Part shown: piece by piece, positions 1,510 to 55,554 of the stretch
Position numbering within the stretch: position 1 is the stretch's first letter
How the letters are laid out: the number at the start of each line of letters is the position of its first letter
NCBI GenBank assembly: GCA_030648285.1
Contig: JAUSIC010000011.1
Span: forward strand, 1,513-65,512
Length of the DNA stretch: 64,000 nt
Direction: 5' to 3'
Origin: Nanobdellota archaeon
GTDB lineage: Archaea > Nanobdellota > Nanobdellia > Pacearchaeales > GW2011-AR1
Program-made: the position numbers and the translations under genes
Notes under the pieces: model-generated
The model's input: the letters and a program-made list of their open reading frames with translations, nothing else
Told to the model about the DNA's origin: nothing
Database searches by the model: none

Positions 1510-1744
1510 TTCTGTTTCTCGTCGCAAGGTTTAAATACTCTTTTTAGCAAAAAACTATAATTAAATTGTAAAATTTAAGCATAAAATCGTAAAACAAAAT
1601 TTCAATCATACTCAACTATCAAATGATAGTCGTGGTGCGGCATTCTGCATGTCGTATCATTTTGAGAACTTAATGTTCAATGAAATAAGCACAGAGATTT
1701 TCCCACTATAATATAAAATATAATTAATTCTTAGCAAACAAACT

Positions 1745-4905
<3,161 letters not shown>

Positions 4906-5291
4906 AAGCCTTAATAAATAGTTTTTTGCTATAATAAAAAGAATTTGTTAAATTTCACTTCGTGAGAAAATCTAACCATCTTAATCGGTGGTGAACTGTG
5001 CTTATTTTATGAAGACGGGGAATTCTAAGAAATTGTTAATGTATACTGAGGTCTTTTGTCGCTTGGTAAAACTTGATTTAATCGTTTAAGTTGAACAAAC
5101 GTGTCAATGAACCACAATGGAGATTAATTATTCTTAGGATATTTTTTGTTCAACTCTTTTCTTGCTTCTTCAATTGTGACACATCCTTCTTCATTAAACA
5201 TAAAATCATGAAATTTTTTTCTAGTTTCCTCTTCAGTTATTTTTTGTTTTTGTTTTGTCATTTTATTAATTATTTTGTAGGGTGTCCACAT

Positions 5292-6221
5292 TCACTTATT
5301 TTTATTTTTTGTAGTCACCTTTCTTAATGTCTTGTTGTATTGTTTTATTAAAAATTTAACTGTTGGTTTAAGATTGTGTTTTTTGGAATACTCTTGCAGA
5401 GATAGATAATATTCTGCTCTGTCTTCTAACTTTATATTTATAGGAGGATATTTATTTTTTAAAAGTATAAAATTCAACAGCAATCTGCCAACTCTTCCGT
5501 TCCCATCCTGAAACGGATGGATATGCTCAAATTGATTGTGAATTATTGCAGCCAAAATCAGTGGCTTGAACTTTTTTTTATTTTTAATATACCAGTTTAT
5601 CAAATCAGTTAGTTCTTCATTTAATTCAGAAACAGGCATCCCTACATGAGTAATCTCTCCTTTGGAATTTTTTATAACAACTTCAACATTTCTAAATTGG
5701 CCAGCAAAAGGTTTTGAATCTTCAAAGCATATTTTATGGATCTTTTTTATTAATTCCAAGGATAATTGTTCTTTTGTTTCTCTGATAAATTTAACTGCTA
5801 TTGCAACTCCTTCTGTTTCTTCCTCTTCTGAACCAGACACTCTCTTTTTCTTTTCTAATATTTCTTTAACTTCATCTAATTGAACTGTTGAACCTTCTAT
5901 TGCATTTGTATTATAAACAAAATCTTCTGTGAATCTTTTCCAATTAAACCTCTCTAAATGATGAATTTTTATTTTTCCTTCATATTCATTAAGTTTTTTT
6001 ATTTGGTTTTCTGAAAGAGAAAAATTGAATAGTTCTGTATTAGATTCTTCGATAATTTCCAAGATAACGCTTTCAGTTATTTTTCTTCTTTTTTCTAATT
6101 CTTTTGGGGAGAGATTTAATCCAAGATAGCGCCTTATTTTTTTAATTTCTTTATTCTCCCTATAAGAATGAACAAGATAATATTTTATGCTCTTTCCAAA
6201 TTTTCTTTTTTCTATATACAT
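5292..6221 (-). CDS. fic: Fic/DOC family protein (putative AMPylase)
   Basis: Canonical Fic motif HPFQDGNGRVGRLLLNFIL. Confidence 0.85.
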   Translation of the reverse strand: MYIEKRKFGKSIKYYLVHSYRENKEIKKIRRYLGLNLSPKELEKRRKITESVILEIIEESNTELFNFSLSENQIKKLNEYEGKIKIHHLERFNWKRFTEDFVYNTNAIEGSTVQLDEVKEILEKKKRVSGSEEEETEGVAIAVKFIRETKEQLSLELIKKIHKICFEDSKPFAGQFRNVEVVIKNSKGEITHVGMPVSELNEELTDLINWYIKNKKKFKPLILAAIIHNQFEHIHPFQDGNGRVGRLLLNFILLKNKYPPINIKLEDRAEYYLSLQEYSKKHNLKPTVKFLIKQYNKTLRKVTTKNKNK

Positions 6222-6530
6222 AATATATTATAGGTGTCCACATTTATAAAAGTTTGTATTTTGTGGGCACCTGAGGATTATAAAAACCTATTTCTTTCCC
6301 TTTCCAAACAATTCCCTCTGATTAATTATCATGCACACGACAGCACCAACAATAAACATCCAATAAACAAATATTGCAAGGGCTAGGAAGCCGATGGCGA
6401 GGAGGGAGAGGAGAACGACTTTGGGGGATTTCATGATGATTTATAGAAGAAAGGGTTAATGTATATTGTGGTTCATTGACATCTTGTTTAATTTATAATT
6501 GACGTTTGGGAATTAAAATAATTACCCCCC

Positions 6531-7076
6531 TTATTGAATTTGAAAAGTATAGTCTTTGTCATCAATTTTAACATGAAGTTTTATTGTTCGATTGTTACTT
6601 TGGCTTTTTGATTCACCGATTTTTTTAACAATTAAATATGCTAACTTTGTTAAGCATGCCATCTCAAATTTTAAGAATGGATATTTTCTAACTAATTTTT
6701 CTAATTCATTTGGATTTTCATTTCTTTCATCCCAGTTAATAGTTATATCTCTCATTCGATTAATTATTTTTTCTTTTGGTAGCTCTAATTCATGAGCATA
6801 TTCGTTCCTAATTTTTCTAAGAGTATCTAATACATTATATTCATCAAGACTAATAATTCCTAAGTCATGTAGAGATTTTAACTTTATATCTTGGTTTAGA
6901 TTATTCTTCGGAATCATTTTCATTTTGATAGTTTTATTCTCAAACAAATAATTAATAGCATATTCTGCATAGAGGCCTATTAATAAAACAGCATATCTAT
7001 CATTTTTAACAAAGTTTTTACTATGGAGTTCATTTAATAAATCAATAAATTTTTCCCATTCAGTTTTCTCTTCCAT
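6531..7076 (-). CDS. HEPN-motif protein (putative RNase), operonic with Cas4-like nuclease
   Basis: LRKIRNEYAHEL contains an R-x4-H HEPN-type motif. The start codon abuts the stop of the upstream nuclease gene. Confidence 0.4.
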   Translation of the reverse strand: MEEKTEWEKFIDLLNELHSKNFVKNDRYAVLLIGLYAEYAINYLFENKTIKMKMIPKNNLNQDIKLKSLHDLGIISLDEYNVLDTLRKIRNEYAHELELPKEKIINRMRDITINWDERNENPNELEKLVRKYPFLKFEMACLTKLAYLIVKKIGESKSQSNNRTIKLHVKIDDKDYTFQIQ

Positions 7077-7724
7077 TTATACCCCCTCACACCACACACA
7101 CTTCTTATCAGGACATTCCCCTTCCAATAACTTTAATGCTTTCTTCCAGATTTTTTCAGCATTGGAGACATCAACTTTCATTTTCTTTAATGTTGTATCA
7201 AAAATAACTTCTCCTGTAGCCATTACTTCTTTAGGAACATAAAACAACAAAAATGAGAAATCTTCTGTTTGATAATCATTTTTTCTTAACAAGAAATTAT
7301 AAATGTCCAATTGATTTTGATAATGCTCGTGAGTGTCTTCTTTTAATGCAAATCCACGTGTTTTATAATCAAGAACAATTATCTTTTTTCCTTTCACCAA
7401 GAGATTATCAATTGCTCCATGAAGAATATTTCCTTCCTTGTCTTTCCAAGATATTCCCTTGAAATTATTTCTCCATGTCTTTAACTTTTCTTCATCATCA
7501 AACAATTTCATTTTCACACATTCTCCATTACTGCATAATTCTGGAGGAAGTTCTCCTTTTCTCATGAACTTGTCAAAGTGTGTTTTCAATATGCCGTCCA
7601 TTCCACTTGGCAAACTTGGAAATATTCCCGATGGACGCTTCCATACTTTGTGTTGTGTCAGCCAGAAACATCTCGGGCATTCTTCCATTAGGGAAAGTGA
7701 GGAGGGGGAGAGTTTGGAAACCAT
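7077..7724 (-). CDS. Cas4-like / RecB-family PD-(D/E)xK nuclease with predicted 4Fe-4S cluster (DUF83-like)
   Basis: N-terminal SPSSLSLMEECPRC matches Cas4 motif I with a Cys. It also has ILHGAIDNL, VLDYKT (the D/ExK), the RecB-family Q..Y motif YQNQLDIY, and C-terminal CPDKKCVWC, which would supply three Cys ligands. Confidence 0.65.
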   Translation of the reverse strand: MVSKLSPSSLSLMEECPRCFWLTQHKVWKRPSGIFPSLPSGMDGILKTHFDKFMRKGELPPELCSNGECVKMKLFDDEEKLKTWRNNFKGISWKDKEGNILHGAIDNLLVKGKKIIVLDYKTRGFALKEDTHEHYQNQLDIYNFLLRKNDYQTEDFSFLLFYVPKEVMATGEVIFDTTLKKMKVDVSNAEKIWKKALKLLEGECPDKKCVWCEGV

Positions 7725-7816
7725 AGAAGAGAAAGGGGAGGGGAGTTTTTAAAAATATTGAGATATCAAGAATTAGGTTTCTATTAAATTGTTAGCACAT
7801 CTTTTTAAAGAGAGAG

Positions 7817-8320
7817 ATGTTATTTTTTTATATTAAAATGAAAAAGATGATGATAGATACAAGTATAATTTTAGAACCATTTACGCCAGAAAATAAAAAA
7901 GGTCCAAATTATAAACGAAGATGCTTGGCATTACTTAAAAACGATATTGTATACTTCAAGAATAATTTTTTACCGGTTATCTCTCTAAGTATATTGGGAG
8001 AATTACATGGTATAATCAATGAGAAAAAAATATCTTGGAAGAAAGAGACAATGAATGAAATAATCAATGAATTTTTTGGAAATTGTTTAACTGTAGGAAT
8101 AACAAGAGAATCTATAGACATGGCAAATTGCATATTAAAATCTGATGAACGTTTAGATCCATTAGATATCTTACATTTATCTTGTGCTATTTGTAATGAT
8201 TGTGAAACATTTATGACTTTAGATTCTGAATTAATAAAAAGCGAATTTTTAAGAAAATTTATTAAAGAAAGAGAATTTTATCTAACTCCATTTAACATAC
8301 ATGAAAATAAAGATAGATAA
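7817..8320 (+). CDS. PIN-domain protein (VapC-like nuclease)
   Basis: N-terminal MMIDTSIIL is typical of the PIN first acidic motif. Further Asp residues occur at LDPLDILHL. Confidence 0.5.
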   Translation: MLFFYIKMKKMMIDTSIILEPFTPENKKGPNYKRRCLALLKNDIVYFKNNFLPVISLSILGELHGIINEKKISWKKETMNEIINEFFGNCLTVGITRESIDMANCILKSDERLDPLDILHLSCAICNDCETFMTLDSELIKSEFLRKFIKEREFYLTPFNIHENKDR

Positions 8321-8638: not shown

Positions 8639-9321
8639 ATGAAGATTAAAGACTTACCCGATTCTTCTAAACCAAGAGAAAGATTTCTTAAATTTGGTCC
8701 AGAAGCTCTAAGTGATGCGGAATTATTCGCAATATTATTAAGGACAGGAACAAGAGAAAAAAAGGACAAAAAGGAGAAAATGTAATTGAAATGTCTAATC
8801 GACTTATTAATGAATATGGATTAGATAAACTTCTTGAATGTTCATTAATGGAATTACAGAAGATTAATGGGATTGGACCTGCAAAAGCAATGCAGATATT
8901 AACAATTGCAGAAATTCAAAAAAGAATTAATCAATCAAAAAAACCTATAAAGAGAATATCTTGTGCCCAAGATGTTTTTGATATTTTCCATGATAAGCTG
9001 AAAGATGAAAAGCAAGAAAATTTCTATATTTTAATGTTAAATAATAAAAATTATATTATTGGAGAGCAATTAATCAGTAGAGGAATTTTAGATTCTGCAA
9101 TTATCCATTCAAGAGAAGTTTTCAAACCAGCAATTAAAAATTCAGCAAGTAGAATTATTTTGGTGCATAATCATCCTTCTGGAAATCCCGAACCTAGTTC
9201 TGAAGACTTAGAAGTTACAAAACAAATAGTTGAAGCAGGGGAATTAATTGGTATAAAGGTTTTGGATCATGTTATTATTGGAGAGGGGAAGTGGTGGAGT
9301 TGGGAGAAGAGCAAGAATTAA
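8639..9321 (+). CDS. radC: RadC-like JAB/MPN protein, split by a frameshift in an A-run (N-terminal 8639-8785; C-terminal ORF 8791-9321)
   Basis: The upstream frame encodes [40 protein letters not shown], a RadC N-terminus, then stops. The C-terminal ORF has the HhH stretch [16 protein letters not shown] and the JAB motif [21 protein letters not shown]. Shifting frame restores GENVIEM continuity. Confidence 0.7.
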
Positions 9322-10079
9322 TTCGAAATAGCGTATATTTTTTTGAAACTATTAAACAATTCTTGTATCTCCAAAAAGTGTTCATTATTTGATAATTTAT
9401 TAATTTCAAAATTCAAACAAAATTCAATGTCTTTATTTGAGAAATAACTTAGTTTAATTAAAATTTCTTCTATTTGCTCATTATCATCTGGGTATTCTCT
9501 TTCTTCTTTATTCCAATTTTCTAATAAAAATTTTTCAAAACAAAGCAAGATTATTGGTTTAGAAAATTCTTCTATTTCTTTAATATAATCTAAAATATCG
9601 TTGATCTTCTCATCTAAGGTATCTTCACTAATGAAAGTAATATTCCCTGAAGAATGAGCTATATTGTTTCTTATTTCAACCAATTTTTTATAGTTACCAA
9701 TTTTGCAATTGTCACAATTAATTAATTTAAAATATCTCAAAATAACTTTTTCGTCAATTAAACTAAACTTAAACGGGTTATCTCCTCTTAAGAGAGCATC
9801 CTCATGTTCTTGTTTATTAAAACCTATAATTGTCTTATCAAAATCTTCTCTTTTATTTTCTCTTATTTGCCAGATGTCAAAGTAAACAAAACACATAAAT
9901 AACATATGAAAAGCCAAAAAAGCAAATTGATATTTTCTATTTTTATAATTTGATTCAAATGTTTCTTTTAAAAAATTTATATAGTCTCTTTCGGGTTCAT
10001 TCTTAAACGATAGAGGTAAATAATCAAAGATTTCATAAGAATCTTCAATCATTTTTATCTCCTTCACCCCAAACTTCAC
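9318..10079 (-). CDS. HEPN/Abi-like protein (possible abortive-infection component) at the 3' end of the type I RM operon
   Basis: LVEIRNNIAHSSGN fits an R-x4-H HEPN motif of the Abi_2/AbiD type. It overlaps the hsdMS 3' end by 35 nt. Confidence 0.4.
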   Translation of the reverse strand: MKFGVKEIKMIEDSYEIFDYLPLSFKNEPERDYINFLKETFESNYKNRKYQFAFLAFHMLFMCFVYFDIWQIRENKREDFDKTIIGFNKQEHEDALLRGDNPFKFSLIDEKVILRYFKLINCDNCKIGNYKKLVEIRNNIAHSSGNITFISEDTLDEKINDILDYIKEIEEFSKPIILLCFEKFLLENWNKEEREYPDDNEQIEEILIKLSYFSNKDIEFCLNFEINKLSNNEHFLEIQELFNSFKKIYAISN

Positions 10080-12516
10080 TTATTTTATCCTTAATCTTTT
10101 TCTCAAAAATTTCAATAAGTTTTTTATTTGAATCAACAAGTTTTTGTTCTTCTTCAATATTTGCCGCAATTTGTTTTTGAGTCTCTAATGAAGGTAAAGG
10201 AATTTTAACTTTTTTTACAAGTTCGCTATTTAAATTTCTTACGACTCCTCCAGTTGCAGCATTTTCAAATTGTTGTATTACAAAAATAGAACCGAGTGTA
10301 TGATAAAAGTAGTTTTTATCTATTTCTTTTTCGTTTATACGAAGTAACAGCCAACCATCATGGATACATCCAGAAGTCTTCATTATATATGGTTTCCCAA
10401 AACTCATAGAATTAGACAGTATAAAATCTCCATCATGTACTGCTCTCGATTTTTTAGCCCCTTCTGGAGTTATTTTTTCTTTAGTTTCTGATATGTATTT
10501 TGTGGCATTTTTAGTATCCCCAATTTTAATCCAATTTACTCCGTTTTTACTTTCAGTTATATATTCATCGATTGGTCTTGGAGAAGCCCCCCGCTCTATC
10601 TCACAAATAGATCTAATCTCAACCATCTCCCAATTTGGATCAATCTTAAAACTGGGTTTATAATTATCAACAACTTCTCTGGCTCCGTCAATTATTTTCT
10701 GATAGCTCTCAAGTTCTTCAACAGTTTTTTCTTGAACTTCTAAAGGTGGAAACGGAACTTTAACCTTCTCTATTTGTTTTGTGGAAATATGTTTAACAGT
10801 TACTGCCCAAGTATTTTTTTCTATTTCTTTCAACGGTTTTTCTAAATTAAGATTAATCCATTCTTTTGAACACTTTTTAAAGTTAGATAATTTACAAACT
10901 CGCTGATTTAGTAATGCTTTTCCTCCATTCCAAACAACATGATTAAATTCTCCATCCATTCCAATTATTAGGTCCCCATTATCTATAAGATACTTTTTAT
11001 CGTATTCCCCAGAATATTTTGTTTCTGTAGAATTTGTTTTTATGTCTCTTATTCTGATTAATGGAAAACCTTCTTGAGGATTGAATAATTTCGAATCAAA
11101 TGCGTACCCTGAAAGAATTTCACAAACATCTCCTAATTCAACCAAAGGCCAATTTCCAGAATAAACTTCTTGCTTTCTATATCTATCTTGGCTTAGATTA
11201 AAATCTCCTGCAAGTTCGTCTTTTTCTATGATTAAAGCATTTCTTTTTTCTAATTCATTCAACTCGAACTCTTTTCCATTTTTAATCGCATCTTTGTATC
11301 TTTTAATTATTTCCAATGCTATTGGCAAATCGCTACCAGAAACCTCTCTTCTTTGAGCACCCAAACCATATCCATCGTTCTCAATTTTAACAAATAAAAT
11401 TTTTTTTGTTTTCTTTACAAGAGATTTATCTAATAATAAAACAGATGTCTTAACACCAGAATAGGGGTTAAATACTCCCGCGGGGAGAGAAATAACTGCA
11501 TAAAGAGAATTTTCTAAAAGCATTTTTCTTAAATCTTTATAAGCATTTCCTGATTGAAATATAATTCCTTCTGGAACAATAATCCCTGCTCTTCCTTGAG
11601 AAGTTAAATGTTCTGAAATATAATCAACAAATAAAACTTCTGAACGATTCGCTTGAACTGAGAATCTCTTATGTGGTTTTATTCCCCCTTTGGGAGTCAT
11701 AAAGGGGGGATTTGCCATTATTACTTCAAATTGGTCATTCCATCTTTCTTCTGAAGTTAAAGTATCATATTCAAAAATTTTAGGATCAGGAAACCCATGA
11801 AGATAGAGATTCACTAATGAAAGTCTAACCATATCTGGAGAAATATCATATCCAACAAAATTATTAATTAGTCTTCTTTTTTCATCCGGAGTTAGAGTTA
11901 TTTTTCCATTTTCGTCTTTATATTTATTAAGAATATGCTTGTAAGCTGAAATCAAAAAACCCGCTGTTCCACAAGCAGGATCTAAAACAGATTCATTTTT
12001 GTCTGGATCAATAGTTTTGACAATAAAGTCGATTATATGTCTTGGTGTTCTGAATTGTCCAGCATCTCCCTGTGATCCCATAACAGAAAGAAGATATTCA
12101 AAAGCGTCTCCTAGTTTTTCTGAATTATCATAATTAAACCAATCAATTTCCTTAAGGAAACTCTTAAGAGTTTCTGGATCTCTATACGGAAGATAGGCAT
12201 TTTTGAAAATATCTCTAAATAGTTGGGGGATATTCTTGTTTTGATTCATTTTCAAAAGAGATTCATTATAATAACTAATTAACTCATGTCCGGATATTTT
12301 TGGACTAACTAAATTACTCCAAGAATATTTTTCAAATTCTCCAGTAAAAAATTTAGGTTTTCCCCCAAGCTCTTCAGACTGCTTGTCCATATCATCCATA
12401 AATTTGTAAATTAAGGCAATAGTAATCTGTTCAATCTGAGATTTTGGATCAGGAAGTTTTCCAACTAAAATATCTCTACAAGTATCAATTTTTCTTTTGG
12501 TTTCGGAATCTAACAT
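10045..12516 (-). CDS. hsdMS: type I restriction-modification HsdM methyltransferase fused to HsdS specificity subunit with two TRDs
   Basis: N6-adenine methyltransferase motifs DPACGTAGFLISAY and IMANPPF are in the first roughly 450 aa. The C-terminal roughly 370 aa carries two TRD-like repeats, each with a conserved LGDV-type segment: VELGDVCEILSG and MVEIRSICEIERG. Confidence 0.8.
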   Translation of the reverse strand: MLDSETKRKIDTCRDILVGKLPDPKSQIEQITIALIYKFMDDMDKQSEELGGKPKFFTGEFEKYSWSNLVSPKISGHELISYYNESLLKMNQNKNIPQLFRDIFKNAYLPYRDPETLKSFLKEIDWFNYDNSEKLGDAFEYLLSVMGSQGDAGQFRTPRHIIDFIVKTIDPDKNESVLDPACGTAGFLISAYKHILNKYKDENGKITLTPDEKRRLINNFVGYDISPDMVRLSLVNLYLHGFPDPKIFEYDTLTSEERWNDQFEVIMANPPFMTPKGGIKPHKRFSVQANRSEVLFVDYISEHLTSQGRAGIIVPEGIIFQSGNAYKDLRKMLLENSLYAVISLPAGVFNPYSGVKTSVLLLDKSLVKKTKKILFVKIENDGYGLGAQRREVSGSDLPIALEIIKRYKDAIKNGKEFELNELEKRNALIIEKDELAGDFNLSQDRYRKQEVYSGNWPLVELGDVCEILSGYAFDSKLFNPQEGFPLIRIRDIKTNSTETKYSGEYDKKYLIDNGDLIIGMDGEFNHVVWNGGKALLNQRVCKLSNFKKCSKEWINLNLEKPLKEIEKNTWAVTVKHISTKQIEKVKVPFPPLEVQEKTVEELESYQKIIDGAREVVDNYKPSFKIDPNWEMVEIRSICEIERGASPRPIDEYITESKNGVNWIKIGDTKNATKYISETKEKITPEGAKKSRAVHDGDFILSNSMSFGKPYIMKTSGCIHDGWLLLRINEKEIDKNYFYHTLGSIFVIQQFENAATGGVVRNLNSELVKKVKIPLPSLETQKQIAANIEEEQKLVDSNKKLIEIFEKKIKDKISEVWGEGDKND

Positions 12517-15044
12517 TGTAAAAATTTGTTTATTGGAACATAATCTTTTATATAATTAACAATAAACTCTGGCCCCCCATTCCATTCTTTTAATTCTTTA
12601 AATTCCTTCATATTAAAAATTGGATTTGTTGCTAATCTCTGGTATTCTTTTGTTTCCATAATTTCTTGCAATTCTTTATCTGTAAGATATGCTTTGAAAA
12701 ATTCTTTTATTAGATAGTAATATTTAATTTCGTTTTCATTAATTTTATTAGTAATTACAAATTTTTGTATTTCATCTTCCATTAGTTCATCTTTATTTTT
12801 TAATTGTTTTATCTTTCCAAAAATATACTCTAAAATCTCTCGCAAACTCAATCTCCTATTTAATTTCAAAGCTTTCCTCAATTTATCAAGTGTATAAAAT
12901 TCTTTTGGTTTATCTAAAATATTATTTTTAATATATTCTTCTGCTTCTTCATATTCTCTTTCATTAACTTTTGATACAATGAAAGTATTTTTCCTAATTT
13001 TTTCGGAAAAACTTTCAAATAGTTTTCTATCTATTTTCATACCTTCTATTCCAATTTTAGATTCCAAATACTGCTTTAATGGATCTTGATTATAATTTTC
13101 ATACTCTTTATCTCGGACTATCATTACATCTACTTCGTTTTTTTTCTTTGAACTCATAGGAGGTAATTTTAAAAATTGTCCGTAATTAAACTTCTTTTCA
13201 AAATACTCACAATTTCCAAAAAAGTCAAATAGTTTAAATGTATTCTTAGATTTGATATCTTCTTCAATTTCTCCAAGTTCATTCTTTTTTTTAAAACTAA
13301 ACTTAAAGGTTCTCGTTCCTCTACCTTTTATCTGAACAAAATCTGTAGGAGAGAATATTGGCCTCATAAGACAGATATTAAGTAAATCTTCACAATCATA
13401 ACCGGTAGTCATCATTCCAACAGTCACACAAACTCTCGTTTTGCTTGAATTATAATCTTCTTTGAATTTTGTGTGTCCATTCAAATTATTATTTGCAAAA
13501 TTCATTGCCATTTGTTGTGCAGAATCTACTAGAGAAGTTATTTGAATTGCAAAATCCGAAGTATATTTTTCGGGGAATAGTTTAGTTGCTAATTTATTGA
13601 GCATATTTGTTATTTTAGCTGCATGGTCTTGACTAACACAAAAGATAATTGTCTTTCCAATTTCTTCGGTTATAGGATCTCTTTGTGCATTTTCAATAAA
13701 AGTCCTACAAAAAGTTTCATTTGTTTCTTCTGAGAAGAATTTCTTTTCGAAGTCTTTATGAATATAGACTTTCTCTTCTTTTTTTCCTTCTTCATTTTCA
13801 GTAACTATTGCATATCCTTTTTCAGCAAGTAATTCTGTGGTAATATCTGTTCTCGCATCTACTGCTAAAGGATTAACAAGATATCCATCTTTAACTCCTT
13901 CAAGCAAAGAATATCTAAATGTTGGATCTCCAGTTTCACATCCAAATGTTTTATAAGTATCTCTAAGTTGCCTCAATTCCCATTTTCTTGGATCCATATT
14001 AAAAATATCTTTATCATCTAAATTTTTTATATAATCTTTAGGAGTGGCAGTTAATCCTAATTTATAACCGACAAAATATTCAAATACTGCTCTGCTATTT
14101 CCCCCAATAGATCTGTGTGCTTCATCAGAAATTATTAAATCAAAGTCTGTTGGTGAGAAAATTTCTTTATATTTATCACTTACCATAAGAGATTGCACTG
14201 TTGAAATAACTATATCTGCTTTCATCCAATCATCTTTATTTTCTTTATAAATTTTAACTATGAAATCATTTTTTAACATTAAATTCAAATTTTTCCATGC
14301 TTGATTTTCTAATTCAATTCTGTCTACTAAAAATAAAATCCGGTTAACATTTTCAGTCCTTAGAAATAACTTACAAATTGCTGCTGAAACAAGTGTTTTT
14401 CCAGTTCCAGTAGCCATTTCAAATAAAAATCTATTTTTTTTATTTTTTACTGCTTCTTGTAAATGTGTTACAGCGTTTATTTGGTATGGCCTTAAAAATT
14501 TTAATTGATTTTCTTTAATATAACTTACTTGTTTTTCATCATCTAAATATTTTGGATCATTATTATAATCTGGTTTCTGTGTCAAAACAATATAATCTGT
14601 TTCTATTTTTTCCTTTACAATTGCTTCTGGATTAGGAGTAAATTTATTTTTATGATTTAAATCTTCTTCTGTAGGAAATGAAGTTACTTGGTTTGGATCT
14701 CCTGTTTTTAAATCCCAAAGGTAATGAATATTCCCGTTGCTTAAAATGACAAATCTAGCATTTTCGCTATTCGCATATCTTCTTGCTTGTTCTTTTGCTG
14801 ATAGAGGATGTTTATCTTCAGATTTTGCCTCTAAAACTGCTAATGGTTTTTTGTTTTTACCTAACAAAAGAAAATCAATAAACCCATTTTTCGTCTTTTC
14901 AAAATCGTCTCCTAACTCCTCAATTTTTACATTTGCCTCTAATTTAATATTTGCTTTTTCATCTTTAGAATCAAAAAATCTCCAACCACTTACTTCTAGT
15001 AATTTGTTAATTTTTATTCTTGCTTTGGCTTCCTTTTGTACCAT
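12510..15044 (-). CDS. hsdR: type I restriction enzyme HsdR helicase-nuclease subunit
   Basis: Walker A EMATGTGKT, the DEAH box ISDEAHRS, and an N-terminal HsdR-type region. The start is taken at internal Met MVQKEAK (15044), which avoids overlap with the upstream gene. Confidence 0.85.
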   Translation of the reverse strand: MVQKEAKARIKINKLLEVSGWRFFDSKDEKANIKLEANVKIEELGDDFEKTKNGFIDFLLLGKNKKPLAVLEAKSEDKHPLSAKEQARRYANSENARFVILSNGNIHYLWDLKTGDPNQVTSFPTEEDLNHKNKFTPNPEAIVKEKIETDYIVLTQKPDYNNDPKYLDDEKQVSYIKENQLKFLRPYQINAVTHLQEAVKNKKNRFLFEMATGTGKTLVSAAICKLFLRTENVNRILFLVDRIELENQAWKNLNLMLKNDFIVKIYKENKDDWMKADIVISTVQSLMVSDKYKEIFSPTDFDLIISDEAHRSIGGNSRAVFEYFVGYKLGLTATPKDYIKNLDDKDIFNMDPRKWELRQLRDTYKTFGCETGDPTFRYSLLEGVKDGYLVNPLAVDARTDITTELLAEKGYAIVTENEEGKKEEKVYIHKDFEKKFFSEETNETFCRTFIENAQRDPITEEIGKTIIFCVSQDHAAKITNMLNKLATKLFPEKYTSDFAIQITSLVDSAQQMAMNFANNNLNGHTKFKEDYNSSKTRVCVTVGMMTTGYDCEDLLNICLMRPIFSPTDFVQIKGRGTRTFKFSFKKKNELGEIEEDIKSKNTFKLFDFFGNCEYFEKKFNYGQFLKLPPMSSKKKNEVDVMIVRDKEYENYNQDPLKQYLESKIGIEGMKIDRKLFESFSEKIRKNTFIVSKVNEREYEEAEEYIKNNILDKPKEFYTLDKLRKALKLNRRLSLREILEYIFGKIKQLKNKDELMEDEIQKFVITNKINENEIKYYYLIKEFFKAYLTDKELQEIMETKEYQRLATNPIFNMKEFKELKEWNGGPEFIVNYIKDYVPINKFLQC

Positions 15045-15969
15045 TTTCTTTCTTCTCCAATTTAAAATGAATTTTATATGTATAAAAATCAATATTTTGG
15101 GCAACAGCTAAAGCTCTATGAATTTTTATATCATCTTCAAAAGCAATTATAACTCCCTTAACAGACTGACCCTTTTCAGCTAACTCTTCTTTAACATATC
15201 CCATATATCTTTGAATTTGACCTACGACAACATCACTAACTCTTCCTCTTTTAAGTTCAACAACCAGAAGTTCTTTTTTATCTTTACTAATTGCTAAAAT
15301 ATCTATTGGTCCTGTATCACTTGGATATTGTTGACCAACAATTTCTCCATCTTCTTCATAAATATCATAATGTTTGCCTAATTCCGTATGATGCCAATTT
15401 TTTACTAAAAATTCTTCTAAATGTTCTTCAAGTGCAAAAAGACTAACATCCTCTATAGTTTCATCATTTGCACTTATTAAAGAAGGTCTATTCCCTGAAA
15501 TAAAAGATTCTATCTCATTAGCATGTTTAGTGATATCACTTACTGTTCCTATTGAACCAGCAGAATTTCTTAAAGAGTCACTCATCTCTTCTCTTTTTAA
15601 AACTCTTGGAAGCCAACGAACAGCTCTTTGATGGGGAAGATTTTGACCTTGTTTATATTCATAATTACCTATAACTTCTCCTATAAAATAATTTCCTTGT
15701 CCATCTGGACATAACACAATATCCCCTATGAGGATACCTTTTGAAATAGTATATAACATTCCACATGCAAGCCCTGCTGCAATTTTTGTTTTATGATATT
15801 CTTCTAAATATAATGGAATAAATTCACGATTGAATTGTCTCCAATCCTCAGGGAATTTTCCAGTTAAGTCCCTATTTCCAAAAAATCCGGCACCAATAAA
15901 ATTTCCATCATGTGATTCTTTGGCAAATATACTTTTTGCCCCCAACATTATACGATAATAGTTTTTCAT
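15007..15969 (-). CDS. PD-(D/E)xK nuclease-fold protein (Mrr/NucS-like restriction endonuclease domain)
   Basis: C-terminal DILAISKDKKELLVVELKRGRVSDVVVGQIQRY fits a D...E-x-K ... Q-x-x-R-Y restriction-endonuclease-like core. It sits immediately upstream of hsdR. Confidence 0.5.
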   Translation of the reverse strand: MKNYYRIMLGAKSIFAKESHDGNFIGAGFFGNRDLTGKFPEDWRQFNREFIPLYLEEYHKTKIAAGLACGMLYTISKGILIGDIVLCPDGQGNYFIGEVIGNYEYKQGQNLPHQRAVRWLPRVLKREEMSDSLRNSAGSIGTVSDITKHANEIESFISGNRPSLISANDETIEDVSLFALEEHLEEFLVKNWHHTELGKHYDIYEEDGEIVGQQYPSDTGPIDILAISKDKKELLVVELKRGRVSDVVVGQIQRYMGYVKEELAEKGQSVKGVIIAFEDDIKIHRALAVAQNIDFYTYKIHFKLEKKENGTKGSQSKNKN

Positions 15970-45144: not shown

Positions 45145-46155
45145 ATGCTTCCTGAAAAAATAAAGAAAACATTAGAAAAACAGCATTATGAAATTGCTGG
45201 GAAGAATGAACATTCTGCTGTTCAAATTTGCAGATGGACAAAGAATTCTTTGAATGGAAAAGGCGGATGCTGGAAAGAAAAATTTTATGGAATTGATAGT
45301 GGAAGATGCTGTCAAATGTCTCCTGCTGTAATGTGGTGTGAGAATAAATGCCTGCATTGCTGGCGTCCTATTGAAATGAATTTAGGAATTAATATTGGAA
45401 AAGTTGATGAGCCAAAAGAAATAATTGATGAAATAATAAAAGCAAGAAAAAAATTAATGGTTGGTTTTGGAGGAGATGAAAATATTTCCAAGAAAAGATA
45501 TAAGGAAGCATTAGAACCGAATTTATTCACATTTTCTCTTTCAGGAGAAGCAACTCTTTATCCAAAACTTGATGGATTAATAAAAGAAATAAGAAAAAGA
45601 AAGGCAATTTCATTCTTAGTTACTAACGGGCAAAATCCAGATGTAATAAAGAAACTTGAAAAAAATAATGCTCTCCCCACTCAGCTGACAATTTCAATGA
45701 ATGCTCCTAACAAAGAACTTTTCAAGAAATGGCACAACTCAGTAAGAAAAGATGCTTGGGAAAGATTCAATGAAACTTTGAAATTAATGAAGAAACTAAA
45801 AGGAAAAACAAGAAGAGTCGTGAGATTAACTTTAGTGAGACAGGGGGATGACACAGAGAAACTTAAAGAACTAAACAACATGAAACAAGAACATGTTGAA
45901 GAATACAAAAAATTAATTCTTATTGCAGAACCTGATTTTATTCACGTGAAAGGTTTCAAGTCTTTAGGTTATTCAAGAGAGAGAATGGGTTATTCAAAGC
46001 AACCATTCTACGAAGAAGTTAGAGATTTTGCTAAAAAACTTCTTGAAGAATTAAAATCAAAAGGATACAAGAAACTTGCAGAAGATGAAAGAAGTTGCGT
46101 TGTGTTGTTAGGGAAAGATAAGAAGATGATGAAGATTAAGAAGGGGGAGATTTAA
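45145..46155 (+). CDS. taw1: tRNA wyosine biosynthesis radical-SAM enzyme TYW1/Taw1
   Basis: HSAVQICRWTKNSLNGKGGCWKEKFYGIDSGRCCQMSPAVMWCENKCLHCWRP closely follows the TYW1 N-terminal and radical-SAM cluster pattern. Confidence 0.8.
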   Translation: MLPEKIKKTLEKQHYEIAGKNEHSAVQICRWTKNSLNGKGGCWKEKFYGIDSGRCCQMSPAVMWCENKCLHCWRPIEMNLGINIGKVDEPKEIIDEIIKARKKLMVGFGGDENISKKRYKEALEPNLFTFSLSGEATLYPKLDGLIKEIRKRKAISFLVTNGQNPDVIKKLEKNNALPTQLTISMNAPNKELFKKWHNSVRKDAWERFNETLKLMKKLKGKTRRVVRLTLVRQGDDTEKLKELNNMKQEHVEEYKKLILIAEPDFIHVKGFKSLGYSRERMGYSKQPFYEEVRDFAKKLLEELKSKGYKKLAEDERSCVVLLGKDKKMMKIKKGEI

Positions 46156-47140
46156 TTACAAATTTTTCTTTTAATTGATAACTATTACTCCACTTTGTAT
46201 AAGCATTCCAACCTTGTAAAATTTCCACAAATTTTTCTTTTGATATTTTATTATCATTAAATTCTTTTATCTTTAAATTCATTTTCTTTATATTTCTCTT
46301 TCTCAAAAGTCGAAAATGGTAAAAATTTCTAAAACCAACAAAATCAACCCCTCTTGAAAGAGAAATTATCTTAGATTTTTCCTTATGTAGTTCAATTTTT
46401 AAATTTTCTTCTAGAAATTTATCAATCCGTAATTTCCAAATTTCAAGTTGCTCTCTTGAACCATGAAGTATTATAAAATCGTCAACATATCTTATATAAT
46501 GTTCTATTTTTAATCTATGTTTGATAAAATAATCCAATTCGTTTAAATAAACATTTGCAAAGAATTGTGAAGTTAAATTTCCGAGGGGCATTCCCGTGTC
46601 TTTATTAAAATTGTCAAGGATTAATCTGATTAAATGTGTAGTCTTTATGCATTTAATCTTTTCTTGGATTATTCTTATCAAAACCTCTCTATTCATCTCT
46701 TGAAAATAATGTTTAATATCTGCTTTTAGGCAAAATGCTTCCTTTCTTAGATTGCAAGTAACTTTTCTTTTAAATCTATCAAATCTTTTTATTGCAAACA
46801 GAGTTCCTTTTCCTATTCTATTTGCACAAGAGTCATAAATAAATATTTTATCAAAAATTGGTTCAATAATTCTTATTAAGGCATGATGAACAATTCTATC
46901 CCTGAATGCAGATTTTGAAATTTTTCTTGTTTTTGGGTCTCGCAGAATAAATGTTTTTAATGGTGCTGGTTTATATGTCTGATTTTTTAATTCATTATTC
47001 AAAGTTTTTAGATTGCTGATAAGATTTTCTTCAAATCTTTTTACATAATCTTTCTTTGTTTTTCCTTTTTTTGCTTTTTTATAAGCAAGAAACAAATTTT
47101 TCATAGAAATAATTTCATCATAGAGATTATCTGTATTCAT
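46136..47140 (-). CDS. diversity-generating retroelement (DGR) reverse transcriptase
   Basis: RT motifs: N-terminal DRIVHHAL, GMPLGNLTSQFFANVYLNELD (the GxxxSQ variant characteristic of DGR RTs) and YVDDFIIL. It has no maturase or endonuclease domain. It is adjacent to the TR. Confidence 0.8.
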   Translation of the reverse strand: MNTDNLYDEIISMKNLFLAYKKAKKGKTKKDYVKRFEENLISNLKTLNNELKNQTYKPAPLKTFILRDPKTRKISKSAFRDRIVHHALIRIIEPIFDKIFIYDSCANRIGKGTLFAIKRFDRFKRKVTCNLRKEAFCLKADIKHYFQEMNREVLIRIIQEKIKCIKTTHLIRLILDNFNKDTGMPLGNLTSQFFANVYLNELDYFIKHRLKIEHYIRYVDDFIILHGSREQLEIWKLRIDKFLEENLKIELHKEKSKIISLSRGVDFVGFRNFYHFRLLRKRNIKKMNLKIKEFNDNKISKEKFVEILQGWNAYTKWSNSYQLKEKFVIKSPPS

Positions 47141-47167
47141 AGTAATTATTCCTGTCCTGAAAATAGA

Positions 47168-47252
47168 CTATTCCGAGACTAGAATTCCTGTTATGAGGAT
47201 TCCTGTTGCAATTGAGATTAGCCCTGTCAGAGTTGGCATTGAACCTGGCAAC
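47168..47252 (-). repeat. DGR template repeat (TR)
   Basis: 85-bp near-copy of 47503-47587. At 12 of the 13 mismatches this copy has A on the RT-coding (minus) strand. Confidence 0.75.
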
Positions 47253-47481
47253 TTGTAGCCAATGTTATCAATTAGGAGATAATAATCTCTTCACTGAAAT
47301 TTCTCGCGAGAAATTTCTGTATTTCATAACTTAAAATAAATCTAAATGATGTGCTAATAAATTGGCGTGTAGTCCATATTTTGTAATTCTTGCTCAAGGA
47401 AAAACAAAATTTCAGGACAGAAAGAATAATAAAGAGATCTTTAAAGAATTTAGTTTTTTAATTTATTTAGCGAGCAATACC

Positions 47482-55427: not shown

Positions 55428-55554
55428 GCCTCCATCGCATAGTGGTATTGCACCGGTCTTGAGTAAGGATAAACCTTTCACTTGTTCGTCAAGGTTTTGT
55501 CAAACAAGAGAACCGGGCCCTTGTGGCTCGCAGGTTCGATTCCTGCTGGAGGCG
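55428..55554 (+). tRNA. tRNA-Ser (TGA) with a 47-nt intron (55464-55510) after anticodon-loop position 37
   Basis: Acceptor GCCTCCA/TGGAGGC, anticodon stem CCGGT/ACCGG, loop CTTGAG|A, a long variable arm GCC-CTTGT-GGC, and T-arm GCAGG TTCGATT CCTGC. Confidence 0.7.

Follow-up and report, generated by a model that had tools for sequence, protein, structure and literature searches.

Two abutting genes and their products

The 64-kb stretch of DNA analysed here (64,000 nt; hereafter the window) comes from a Nanobdellota archaeon (contig JAUSIC010000011.1) and carries on its minus strand a gene for a solo Cas4-like PD-(D/E)XK nuclease of 215 aa (7077..7724), followed directly by a gene for a stand-alone DUF4145-type HEPN protein of 181 aa (6531..7076). 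A preliminary description had taken these two abutting open reading frames (ORFs), both of which we located as it placed them, for a new defence architecture that might act as a toxin-antitoxin or abortive-infection pair. Read from the sequence, the nuclease stop codon TAA (7079-7077) directly adjoins the HEPN start codon ATG (7076-7074); the spacer at this junction (7074..7079, minus strand) is zero, and there is no intergenic room for a separate HEPN promoter. An A/T-rich, TATA-like TTTTTAAAAA is placed ~21-33 nt 5' of the nuclease ATG at 7724, and the segment holding it (7725..7760, minus strand) is a candidate archaeal promoter for both genes. Because GAGGGGG, the stretch that codes for the C-terminal E-G of the nuclease, resembles a Shine-Dalgarno site and precedes the HEPN ATG by 5 nt, translation of the HEPN protein may be coupled to that of the nuclease.

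The assignment of the 215-aa protein to the Cas4/RecB-type PD-(D/E)XK nucleases was borne out at several levels. PF12705 PDDEXK_1 scores it at 36.4 bits (cut-off 22, E = 6.9e-9), several PADLOC Cas4 models match it as well (E down to 1.9e-8), and its homologues are annotated at NCBI as 'PD-(D/E)XK nuclease family protein'. The TIGR00372 Cas4 equivalog scores 24.9 bits against a cut-off of 65, PF01930 gave no match at E <= 1, and within the window the gene is not associated with cas1/cas2 or a CRISPR array. The best Foldseek match of the AlphaFold2 (AF2) model (mean pLDDT 73) is the Cas4 protein SSO0001 (4ic1, E = 3e-5); further neighbours include Cas4 in Cas4-Cas1-Cas2, RecE, MGME1, AddAB, lambda exonuclease and ACE1, an Argonaute-associated Cas4-family protein. 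A PDB sequence search with the nuclease profile returned nothing relevant, and only the fold search led to Cas4.

All motifs quoted earlier for this protein are present in its translation, namely SPSSLSLMEECPRC (residues 6-19), VLDYKT (117-122), YQNQLDIY (135-142) and CPDKKCVWC (204-212). In an alignment of 18 sequences the catalytic residues D106, D119-Y-K121 and Q138-x3-Y142 are invariant, as are the cysteines C16, C19, C69, C204, C209 and C212. Taken together, the profile, fold and invariant-residue evidence therefore establishes the DNase assignment. Canonical Cas4 proteins show the cysteine pattern C ... CX2CX5C. The spacing in the nuclease, CX2C ... CX4CX2C, departs from this pattern, and a 4Fe-4S site bound by its cysteines is no more than plausible.

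The downstream product was likewise correctly recognised as a HEPN-type protein with an Rx4H motif: RKIRNEYAHE forms residues 87-96 of the 181-aa chain, giving R90-x4-H95. Its match to PF13643 (DUF4145; E = 3.3e-5) reaches 24.3 bits against a cut-off of 23.1 and covers model positions 27-81 of 88, and HEPN_Swt1 and RNase 2-5A align below threshold to the same part of the protein. Profile searches collected a family of ~20 sequences, all 157-185 aa long, and in the alignment of 20 sequences R90, N91, A94 and H95 are invariant; C141 is the sole invariant cysteine of the family, which has no Cys4 motif. The AF2 model (pLDDT 86, pTM 0.84) consists of eight helices and a C-terminal β-hairpin, and its best Foldseek neighbours in the PDB all belong to the HEPN superfamily, among them MtlR (6kcr, E = 5e-3), HepS (9oij, E = 1e-2), YggD, the HepT/MntA toxins and AF_0298. 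In a profile-to-PDB sequence search, the family consensus IRNeYAHkLE aligned to IRNKYAHKIE of HepS (E = 0.012).

DUF4145, a recognised HEPN family, frequently occurs in fusion or in operon with components of restriction-modification (R-M) systems (Anantharaman et al. 2013, PMC3710099). Defence by single-gene RAZR depends on the catalytic Arg and His of its DUF4145 domain (PMC13017515), and HepS is a single-HEPN abortive-infection anticodon nuclease (PMC13043305). That the 181-aa protein might instead be a catalytically inert HEPN-fold regulator of the MtlR/YggD type is suggested by its best Foldseek matches, MtlR and YggD, and by a weak NCBIfam MltR match (E = 0.016). We consider this very improbable: the four residues invariant in the family align to IRNKYAHK of HepS, which is an active nuclease, and the sporadic, cassette-like distribution of the HEPN gene described below suits a conflict gene better.

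Distribution of the two genes and boundaries of the insertion

Most DPANN genomes carry a solo-Cas4 without CRISPR-Cas (Hudaiberdiev et al. 2017, PMC5704561). According to the same study, these genes evolve like ordinary cellular genes, mostly vertically, adjoin R-M genes in several DPANN genomes and have been suggested to act in uncharacterised defence pathways (PMC5704561). The 215-aa nuclease has more than 3,500 homologues, the best 120 of which share 75-95% identity and are nearly all 215-218 aa long. Relatives at 68-95% identity occur in at least 470 species-representative genomes, and the genomes with a close relative are essentially all DPANN metagenome-assembled genomes (MAGs) of Pacearchaeota, Woesearchaeota and Nanoarchaeota. 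Two MAGs contain two copies each (loci L065/L070 and L053/L072). When set against neighbouring reciprocal-best-hit genes in 273 comparisons, the nuclease was the better conserved of the two in 85% of cases (median 71% versus 57%). It ranks among the most conserved genes of these fast-evolving genomes, and this conservation points to an important DNA-processing role in organisms without CRISPR-Cas. Between species, nucleotide similarity is limited to the nuclease gene itself (L005-L091): in most of 2,299 locus pairs, blastn similarity stops within 10 nt of the stop codon.

We sampled 87 nuclease loci with up to 8 kb of flank. A tblastn search with the HEPN protein detected no HEPN gene in the 87 loci, which gives a 95% upper bound of ~3.6% on the frequency of the pair when about 82 loci are taken as independent, and the only DUF4145 member among 77 proteins encoded downstream of the nuclease was the window's own. 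In the opposite direction, none of the seven other contexts of the HEPN family contains a Cas4-like gene. A homologue with 87% identity lies 2 nt behind a type III-like Mod/Res pair (L001), and elsewhere family members adjoin a PIN gene and a type I R-M system, stand among small ORFs and a resolvase gene, overlap a LigT-like 2',5' RNA ligase gene, lie beside housekeeping genes or follow an M48 peptidase gene. The seven neighbourhoods differ from one another and share no neighbour, leaving the HEPN family without a conserved partner gene.

The conserved module foreseen in the preliminary description was thus not recovered, and what we observe, a lack of syntenic conservation of the pair elsewhere, is the outcome that it had itself named beforehand as refuting. 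The reading as a toxin-antitoxin or abortive-infection pair fails with it, given that synteny is not conserved, that the nearest relatives of the nuclease have no HEPN gene and that the same HEPN ORF stands behind an unrelated res gene. Nor is the architecture a new one: the locus combines a DPANN solo Cas4-like nuclease with a stand-alone DUF4145/HEPN protein, both of known kinds, and should not be carried on as a "HEPN + Cas4" system. A looser, recurrent theme of "Cas4 + any HEPN" was also considered. The R-x4-H-like strings at L039 and L042 had no Pfam match at E <= 0.05, and the theme is therefore unsupported; among the tightly coupled neighbours of the nuclease orthologues, only L100 has a canonical MNT-HEPN pair, upstream of the nuclease.

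One of the HEPN contexts deserves separate mention. The gene of family member P0132 shares 13 nt with the 3' end of the gene for a LigT-like 2',5' RNA ligase / 2H phosphoesterase (L095 4312-5549; L096 4101-5338). Since this enzyme class acts on the 2',3'-cyclic phosphate ends made by HEPN RNases, the LigT-like enzyme might be a repair or antidote partner of the HEPN RNase.

Nucleotide comparison with close relatives defined the ends of the segment that carries the HEPN gene. Against the Mod/Res contig (L001), blastn found 86% nucleotide identity only within 6537-7071, inside the HEPN ORF. The closest flanked relative of the nuclease, L100 (93% identical in amino acids and 88% in nucleotides), aligns from window position 7712 to 7077 (L100 1565..2200), and homology ends at the last base of the stop codon (7077). 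Behind it, the HEPN ORF and a 44-nt tail make up an inserted or replaced segment of 590 nt (6487..7076, minus strand), the counterpart of which in L100 is 161 unrelated nt. This segment is lineage-specific. Beyond it follow a conserved non-coding block of 36 nt (6451..6486, minus strand; L100 2362..2397), whose 97% identity to L100 exceeds that of the flanking genes (87-88%), and an ORF for a predicted membrane peptide of 48 aa (6288..6434, minus strand; 87% nucleotide identity to L100 2576-2724), which belongs to the ancestral scaffold common with L100. The 36-nt block is probably a promoter or regulatory element of the membrane-peptide ORF. An inverted partial copy of it (26 nt, 88% complementary) is present at 5102-5127.

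In a second relative, L101 (nuclease 95% identical in amino acids), the TGA stop codon is followed by unrelated DNA; L100 and L101 have the same ...TGTGAGGGGGT(A/T)T(A/G)A nuclease end, and unrelated non-coding DNA thereafter. On the other side of the nuclease, the RadC gene of L101 lies 58 nt from the nuclease start without an intervening PIN gene, which identifies the PIN-domain gene of the window (7817..8320, plus strand; PF01850, E = 6.7e-5) as a second lineage-specific insertion. No obvious antitoxin-like ORF adjoins this PIN gene. In L100, a canonical MNT + HEPN (PF05168) pair overlaps the nuclease start. These differences between the flanks of the window, L100 and L101 indicate a turnover of toxin-type genes around a nuclease gene that stays in place. 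A mobile-element origin of the HEPN insertion was considered and rejected, the ORF being free of flanking terminal repeats; repeats of note are limited to those that bracket the Fic gene described below and to the probable promoter block.

A lineage-specific functional pair, in which the HEPN RNase and the Cas4-like DNase cooperate as a nuclease-controlled toxin or in a combined DNA-plus-RNA attack, is suggested by the absence of a spacer between the two same-strand genes, which makes co-expression likely, by the location of both in a defence island, by the MNT-HEPN pair at the nuclease start of the close relative L100 and by the defence role proposed for DPANN solo-Cas4 (PMC5704561). We judge such cooperation very unlikely. 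Beyond the co-occurrence counts of 0/87 and 0/7 and the missing HEPN gene in the closest nuclease relatives, the same HEPN ORF follows an unrelated res gene at an equally short distance (2 nt), the nuclease is conserved to a degree incompatible with co-evolution with a sporadic partner, and close gene spacing is normal in these compact genomes. The explanation that we favour, and hold to be highly probable, is that two independent genes became neighbours through a recent insertion of the HEPN gene and form no dedicated two-component system.

Flanks of the nuclease gene and the surrounding defence island

The downstream neighbours of the nuclease fall into 58 clusters in 79 loci, lie on both strands and range from 60 to 1,084 aa; many of these genes overlap the nuclease stop by 4 nt (ATGA). 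R-M families, counted as N4/N6, C5 and D12 methyltransferases, type IIG, HsdR/Res, GmrSD and ThaI, were found directly downstream of the nuclease in 24 of 76 cases, compared with 7 of 79 control ORFs at ±6 kb (odds ratio 4.7, Fisher p = 5e-4), the controls being otherwise mostly housekeeping. The adjacency of solo Cas4-like and R-M genes in DPANN, anecdotal until now, is hereby quantified at about one third immediately downstream versus ~9% at 6 kb. A phmmer scan with biased seeds showed the R-M share to decay from 32% in the first downstream kb to 2-6% beyond 4 kb, and because of this bias the enrichment was judged by the Pfam control set. Genes of the R-M, MNT, Fic, RadC and STAND kinds are numerous upstream of the nuclease too, but not to a significant degree. 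A conserved upstream partner was sought as well, and the frequent large same-strand genes proved heterogeneous (type IIG, type I R-M, SLFN-like helicases, gyrase and others). SIMPL, MgtC or cyclophilin genes accompany the nuclease in a few relatives, but this arrangement recurs at just 4-7 of 87 loci and was rejected as conserved synteny.

The frequent adjacency of DNA methyltransferases raises the question of whether the nuclease is their restriction endonuclease partner. Stand-alone N4/N6 or C5 methyltransferases account for ten of the 76 downstream neighbours, and several of their genes overlap the stop by 4 nt. Set against this, the same nuclease (68-95% identical) adjoins unrelated methyltransferase classes and non-R-M genes, most loci, the window included, have no adjacent orphan methyltransferase, restriction enzymes do not show such conservation, and the fold neighbours are exonucleases of the Cas4/RecB/lambda-exo type. 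We regard a restriction partnership as extremely improbable.

A bolder interpretation would see in the nuclease 3' end a dedicated capture site. Defence ORFs without promoters of their own, such as HEPN in the window and methyltransferases, Doc or GmrSD at other loci, would be inserted at the stop codon and driven by the nuclease promoter. Compatible with it are the restriction of HEPN homology to the ORF in two contexts that are otherwise unrelated, a homology break that coincides with the stop codon, the frequency of -4/0/+2 nt junctions and the ~4.7-fold enrichment of R-M genes directly downstream. If it were true, the nuclease would be a hub enzyme for whichever effector follows or, alternatively, would serve DPANN archaea as the anchor of a cassette system that is integron-like yet independent of an integrase; we think it decidedly unlikely.

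The defence island in which the preliminary description had placed the two genes is real and extends over ~5.1-16 kb, with Fic, PIN, RadC and type I R-M genes, a second HEPN-like gene and a NucS-like nuclease gene. Equally upheld was the statement that CRISPR and other cas genes are missing: the 64-kb window contains no CRISPR-like array, and its 61 ORFs encode no Cas proteins beyond the nuclease itself and a DinG/XPD-like helicase. The Fic gene (5292-6221; PADLOC SoFic, E = 4e-38) is abutted by a 55-aa ORF (5124-5291) and bracketed by two similar imperfect hairpins (5281-5320 and 6233-6272; GGTGTCCACA ... TGTGG(G/A)CACC), which could be cassette boundaries or terminators; the 10-mer of these hairpins occurs five times in the window versus one occurrence expected by chance. 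On the plus strand beyond the PIN gene, RadC looks split into a 48-aa UPF0758 N-terminal ORF (8639-8785) and a 176-aa JAB-domain ORF (8791-9321), which may stem from a frameshift, from pseudogene formation or from misassembly. The type I R-M operon comprises hsdR (12510-15104), an hsdM-hsdS fusion (10045-12516) and, as a trailing HEPN candidate overlapping the 3' end of the fusion, a HEPN-like ORF of 253 aa with the motif 'EIRNNIAHS' (9318-10079, minus strand; RiboL-PSP-HEPN E = 1e-4, below cut-off). A gene for a NucS_C-like nuclease lies at 15007-15969.

This operon bears on a further possibility, namely that the 181-aa HEPN protein is a second-line R-M accessory acting in trans with the type I system 3 kb off, its adjacency to the nuclease being incidental. 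In support, the closest homologue lies 2 nt behind Mod/Res and another one near a type I R-M system, fusions or operons that join DUF4145 to R-M components are on record (PMC3710099), a weak match in NCBIfam aligns the HEPN protein to the N-terminus of the HsdR model, and the type I operon of the window itself ends in a different HEPN-like gene. We nevertheless find an accessory role unlikely: most contexts of the family (L092-L099) have no R-M genes nearby, and the HEPN gene stands outside the operon, separated from it by the nuclease, PIN and RadC genes.

The remainder of the low-GC window is housekeeping in character (ribosomal proteins, FtsZ, a tRNA synthetase) and includes an archaeal RNase P RNA gene and, at 1738-4926 on the plus strand, an archaeal 23S rRNA gene. 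The latter holds a group I intron (3593-3929; Rfam RF00028, 50.9 bits, barely over the gathering score), ~2 kb from the defence island. An RT-16 RNA motif (47250-47417; 65 bits) adjoins an ORF at 46136-47140 (whole region 46136-47417, minus strand). Reverse-transcriptase matches among the window proteins (Pfam RVT_1; PADLOC RT, E = 8e-51) presumably belong to ORF 46136-47140; motif and protein would then form a retron- or DRT-like element far from the island. The PADLOC candidate family PDC-S02 is also matched by one protein of the window (E = 6e-157). A tRNA match spans 127 nt (55428-55554, plus strand), which suggests an intron-containing archaeal tRNA gene.

Proposed roles and comparison with known systems

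With the two genes considered as independent neighbours, we propose separate roles for their products. The solo Cas4-like nuclease, encoded in nearly all DPANN of the Pacearchaeota/Woesearchaeota type, would use its retained RecB-type catalytic residues, and a putative Cys-ligated metal site would link its N- and C-termini. As judged from its family, it is most likely a housekeeping-grade DNA-end exonuclease engaged in repair, in the degradation or processing of broken foreign DNA, or in both. The flanks of its gene, chiefly the 3' one, would form a hotspot with turnover of R-M, toxin and other accessory genes. By this process the HEPN ORF appears to have landed exactly behind the nuclease stop codon, where it would be transcribed from the nuclease promoter; an insertion at this position makes co-transcription and translational coupling of the two genes probable.

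The HEPN protein is a predicted metal-independent RNase that would act through R90/H95 and, by analogy with other HEPN enzymes, is probably a dimer or higher oligomer, with the C-terminal helices and β-hairpin as a candidate regulatory or sensor part. Following the examples of HepS and RAZR, it is most likely a self-contained effector of the abortive-infection or toxin type, which would be kept inactive until triggered and would then cut tRNA or mRNA. The family to which it belongs, a small DPANN-specific one of stand-alone HEPN proteins with a motif nearly identical to that of HepS, makes a sensible candidate for an archaeal abortive-infection system that consists of one gene.

Several observations weigh against parts of this picture. 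The DUF4145 match is marginal (24.3 versus 23.1 bits) and covers part of the model only, the Foldseek scores of the HEPN model are modest (E = 5e-3 to 1e-2, TM 0.4-0.5), and its top match, MtlR, is a non-nuclease member of the superfamily. Neither an antitoxin nor a trigger was identified that could account for the control of a solitary predicted RNase. The N-terminus of the nuclease model (residues 12-40) is of low confidence (pLDDT below 50), which makes any geometry of the putative metal site tentative. As regards the hotspot, the seeds of the distance-decay scan were drawn from the downstream neighbours themselves, and the Pfam control that corrects for this bias is one sample. Lastly, the zero-nt junction makes joint expression near-certain in this lineage and so leaves room for lineage-specific interplay between the two products.

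Bacterial pangenomes contain defence hotspots flanked by core genes, where a conserved gene is bordered by hypervariable, defence-rich flanks. The nuclease locus resembles them in having a conserved anchor and in the gene-sized gains or losses that distinguish close relatives at one and the same position. It differs in that synteny breaks down within a short distance in either direction and that the anchor gene itself encodes a nuclease from a family associated with defence; neither an integrase nor an attachment site was identified at the locus.

Like the solo-Cas4 proteins of DPANN archaea (PMC5704561), the nuclease is a stand-alone member of the Cas4 family encoded outside CRISPR-cas loci and across DPANN genomes, with cellular-gene-like conservation, frequent R-M adjacency and a fold nearest to the Cas4 protein SSO0001. 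Unlike them, it matches PF12705 best, falls below the TIGR00372 cut-off and has the CX2C ... CX4CX2C pattern; the likeness concerns the general kind.

With the DUF4145 family (PMC3710099), the 181-aa protein shares the profile match, the Rx4H motif, the alpha-helical fold and a setting in defence and R-M neighbourhoods. It departs from that family in being small and stand-alone, unfused to a restriction endonuclease, helicase or zinc ribbon, in having its own C-terminal extension of helices and a β-hairpin, and in belonging to a tiny, DPANN-restricted subfamily. HepS of the Gifsy-1 prophage (PDB 9oij, PMC13043305) is closer in format: both are partnerless single-HEPN proteins of ~180-210 aa with a near-identical catalytic motif (IRNKYAHKLE versus IRNKYAHKIE), and HepS is among the top structural matches. 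Sequence similarity between the two is, however, confined to the surroundings of the motif (E = 0.012), and the window protein is archaeal and not visibly prophage-borne. Although it lacks the N-terminal Cys4 zinc-finger domain of RAZR / PD-T7-4, a zinc-finger + DUF4145 protein (PMC13017515), it is like that one-gene system, whose catalytic R and H are needed, in having a DUF4145-type HEPN domain as the sole effector.

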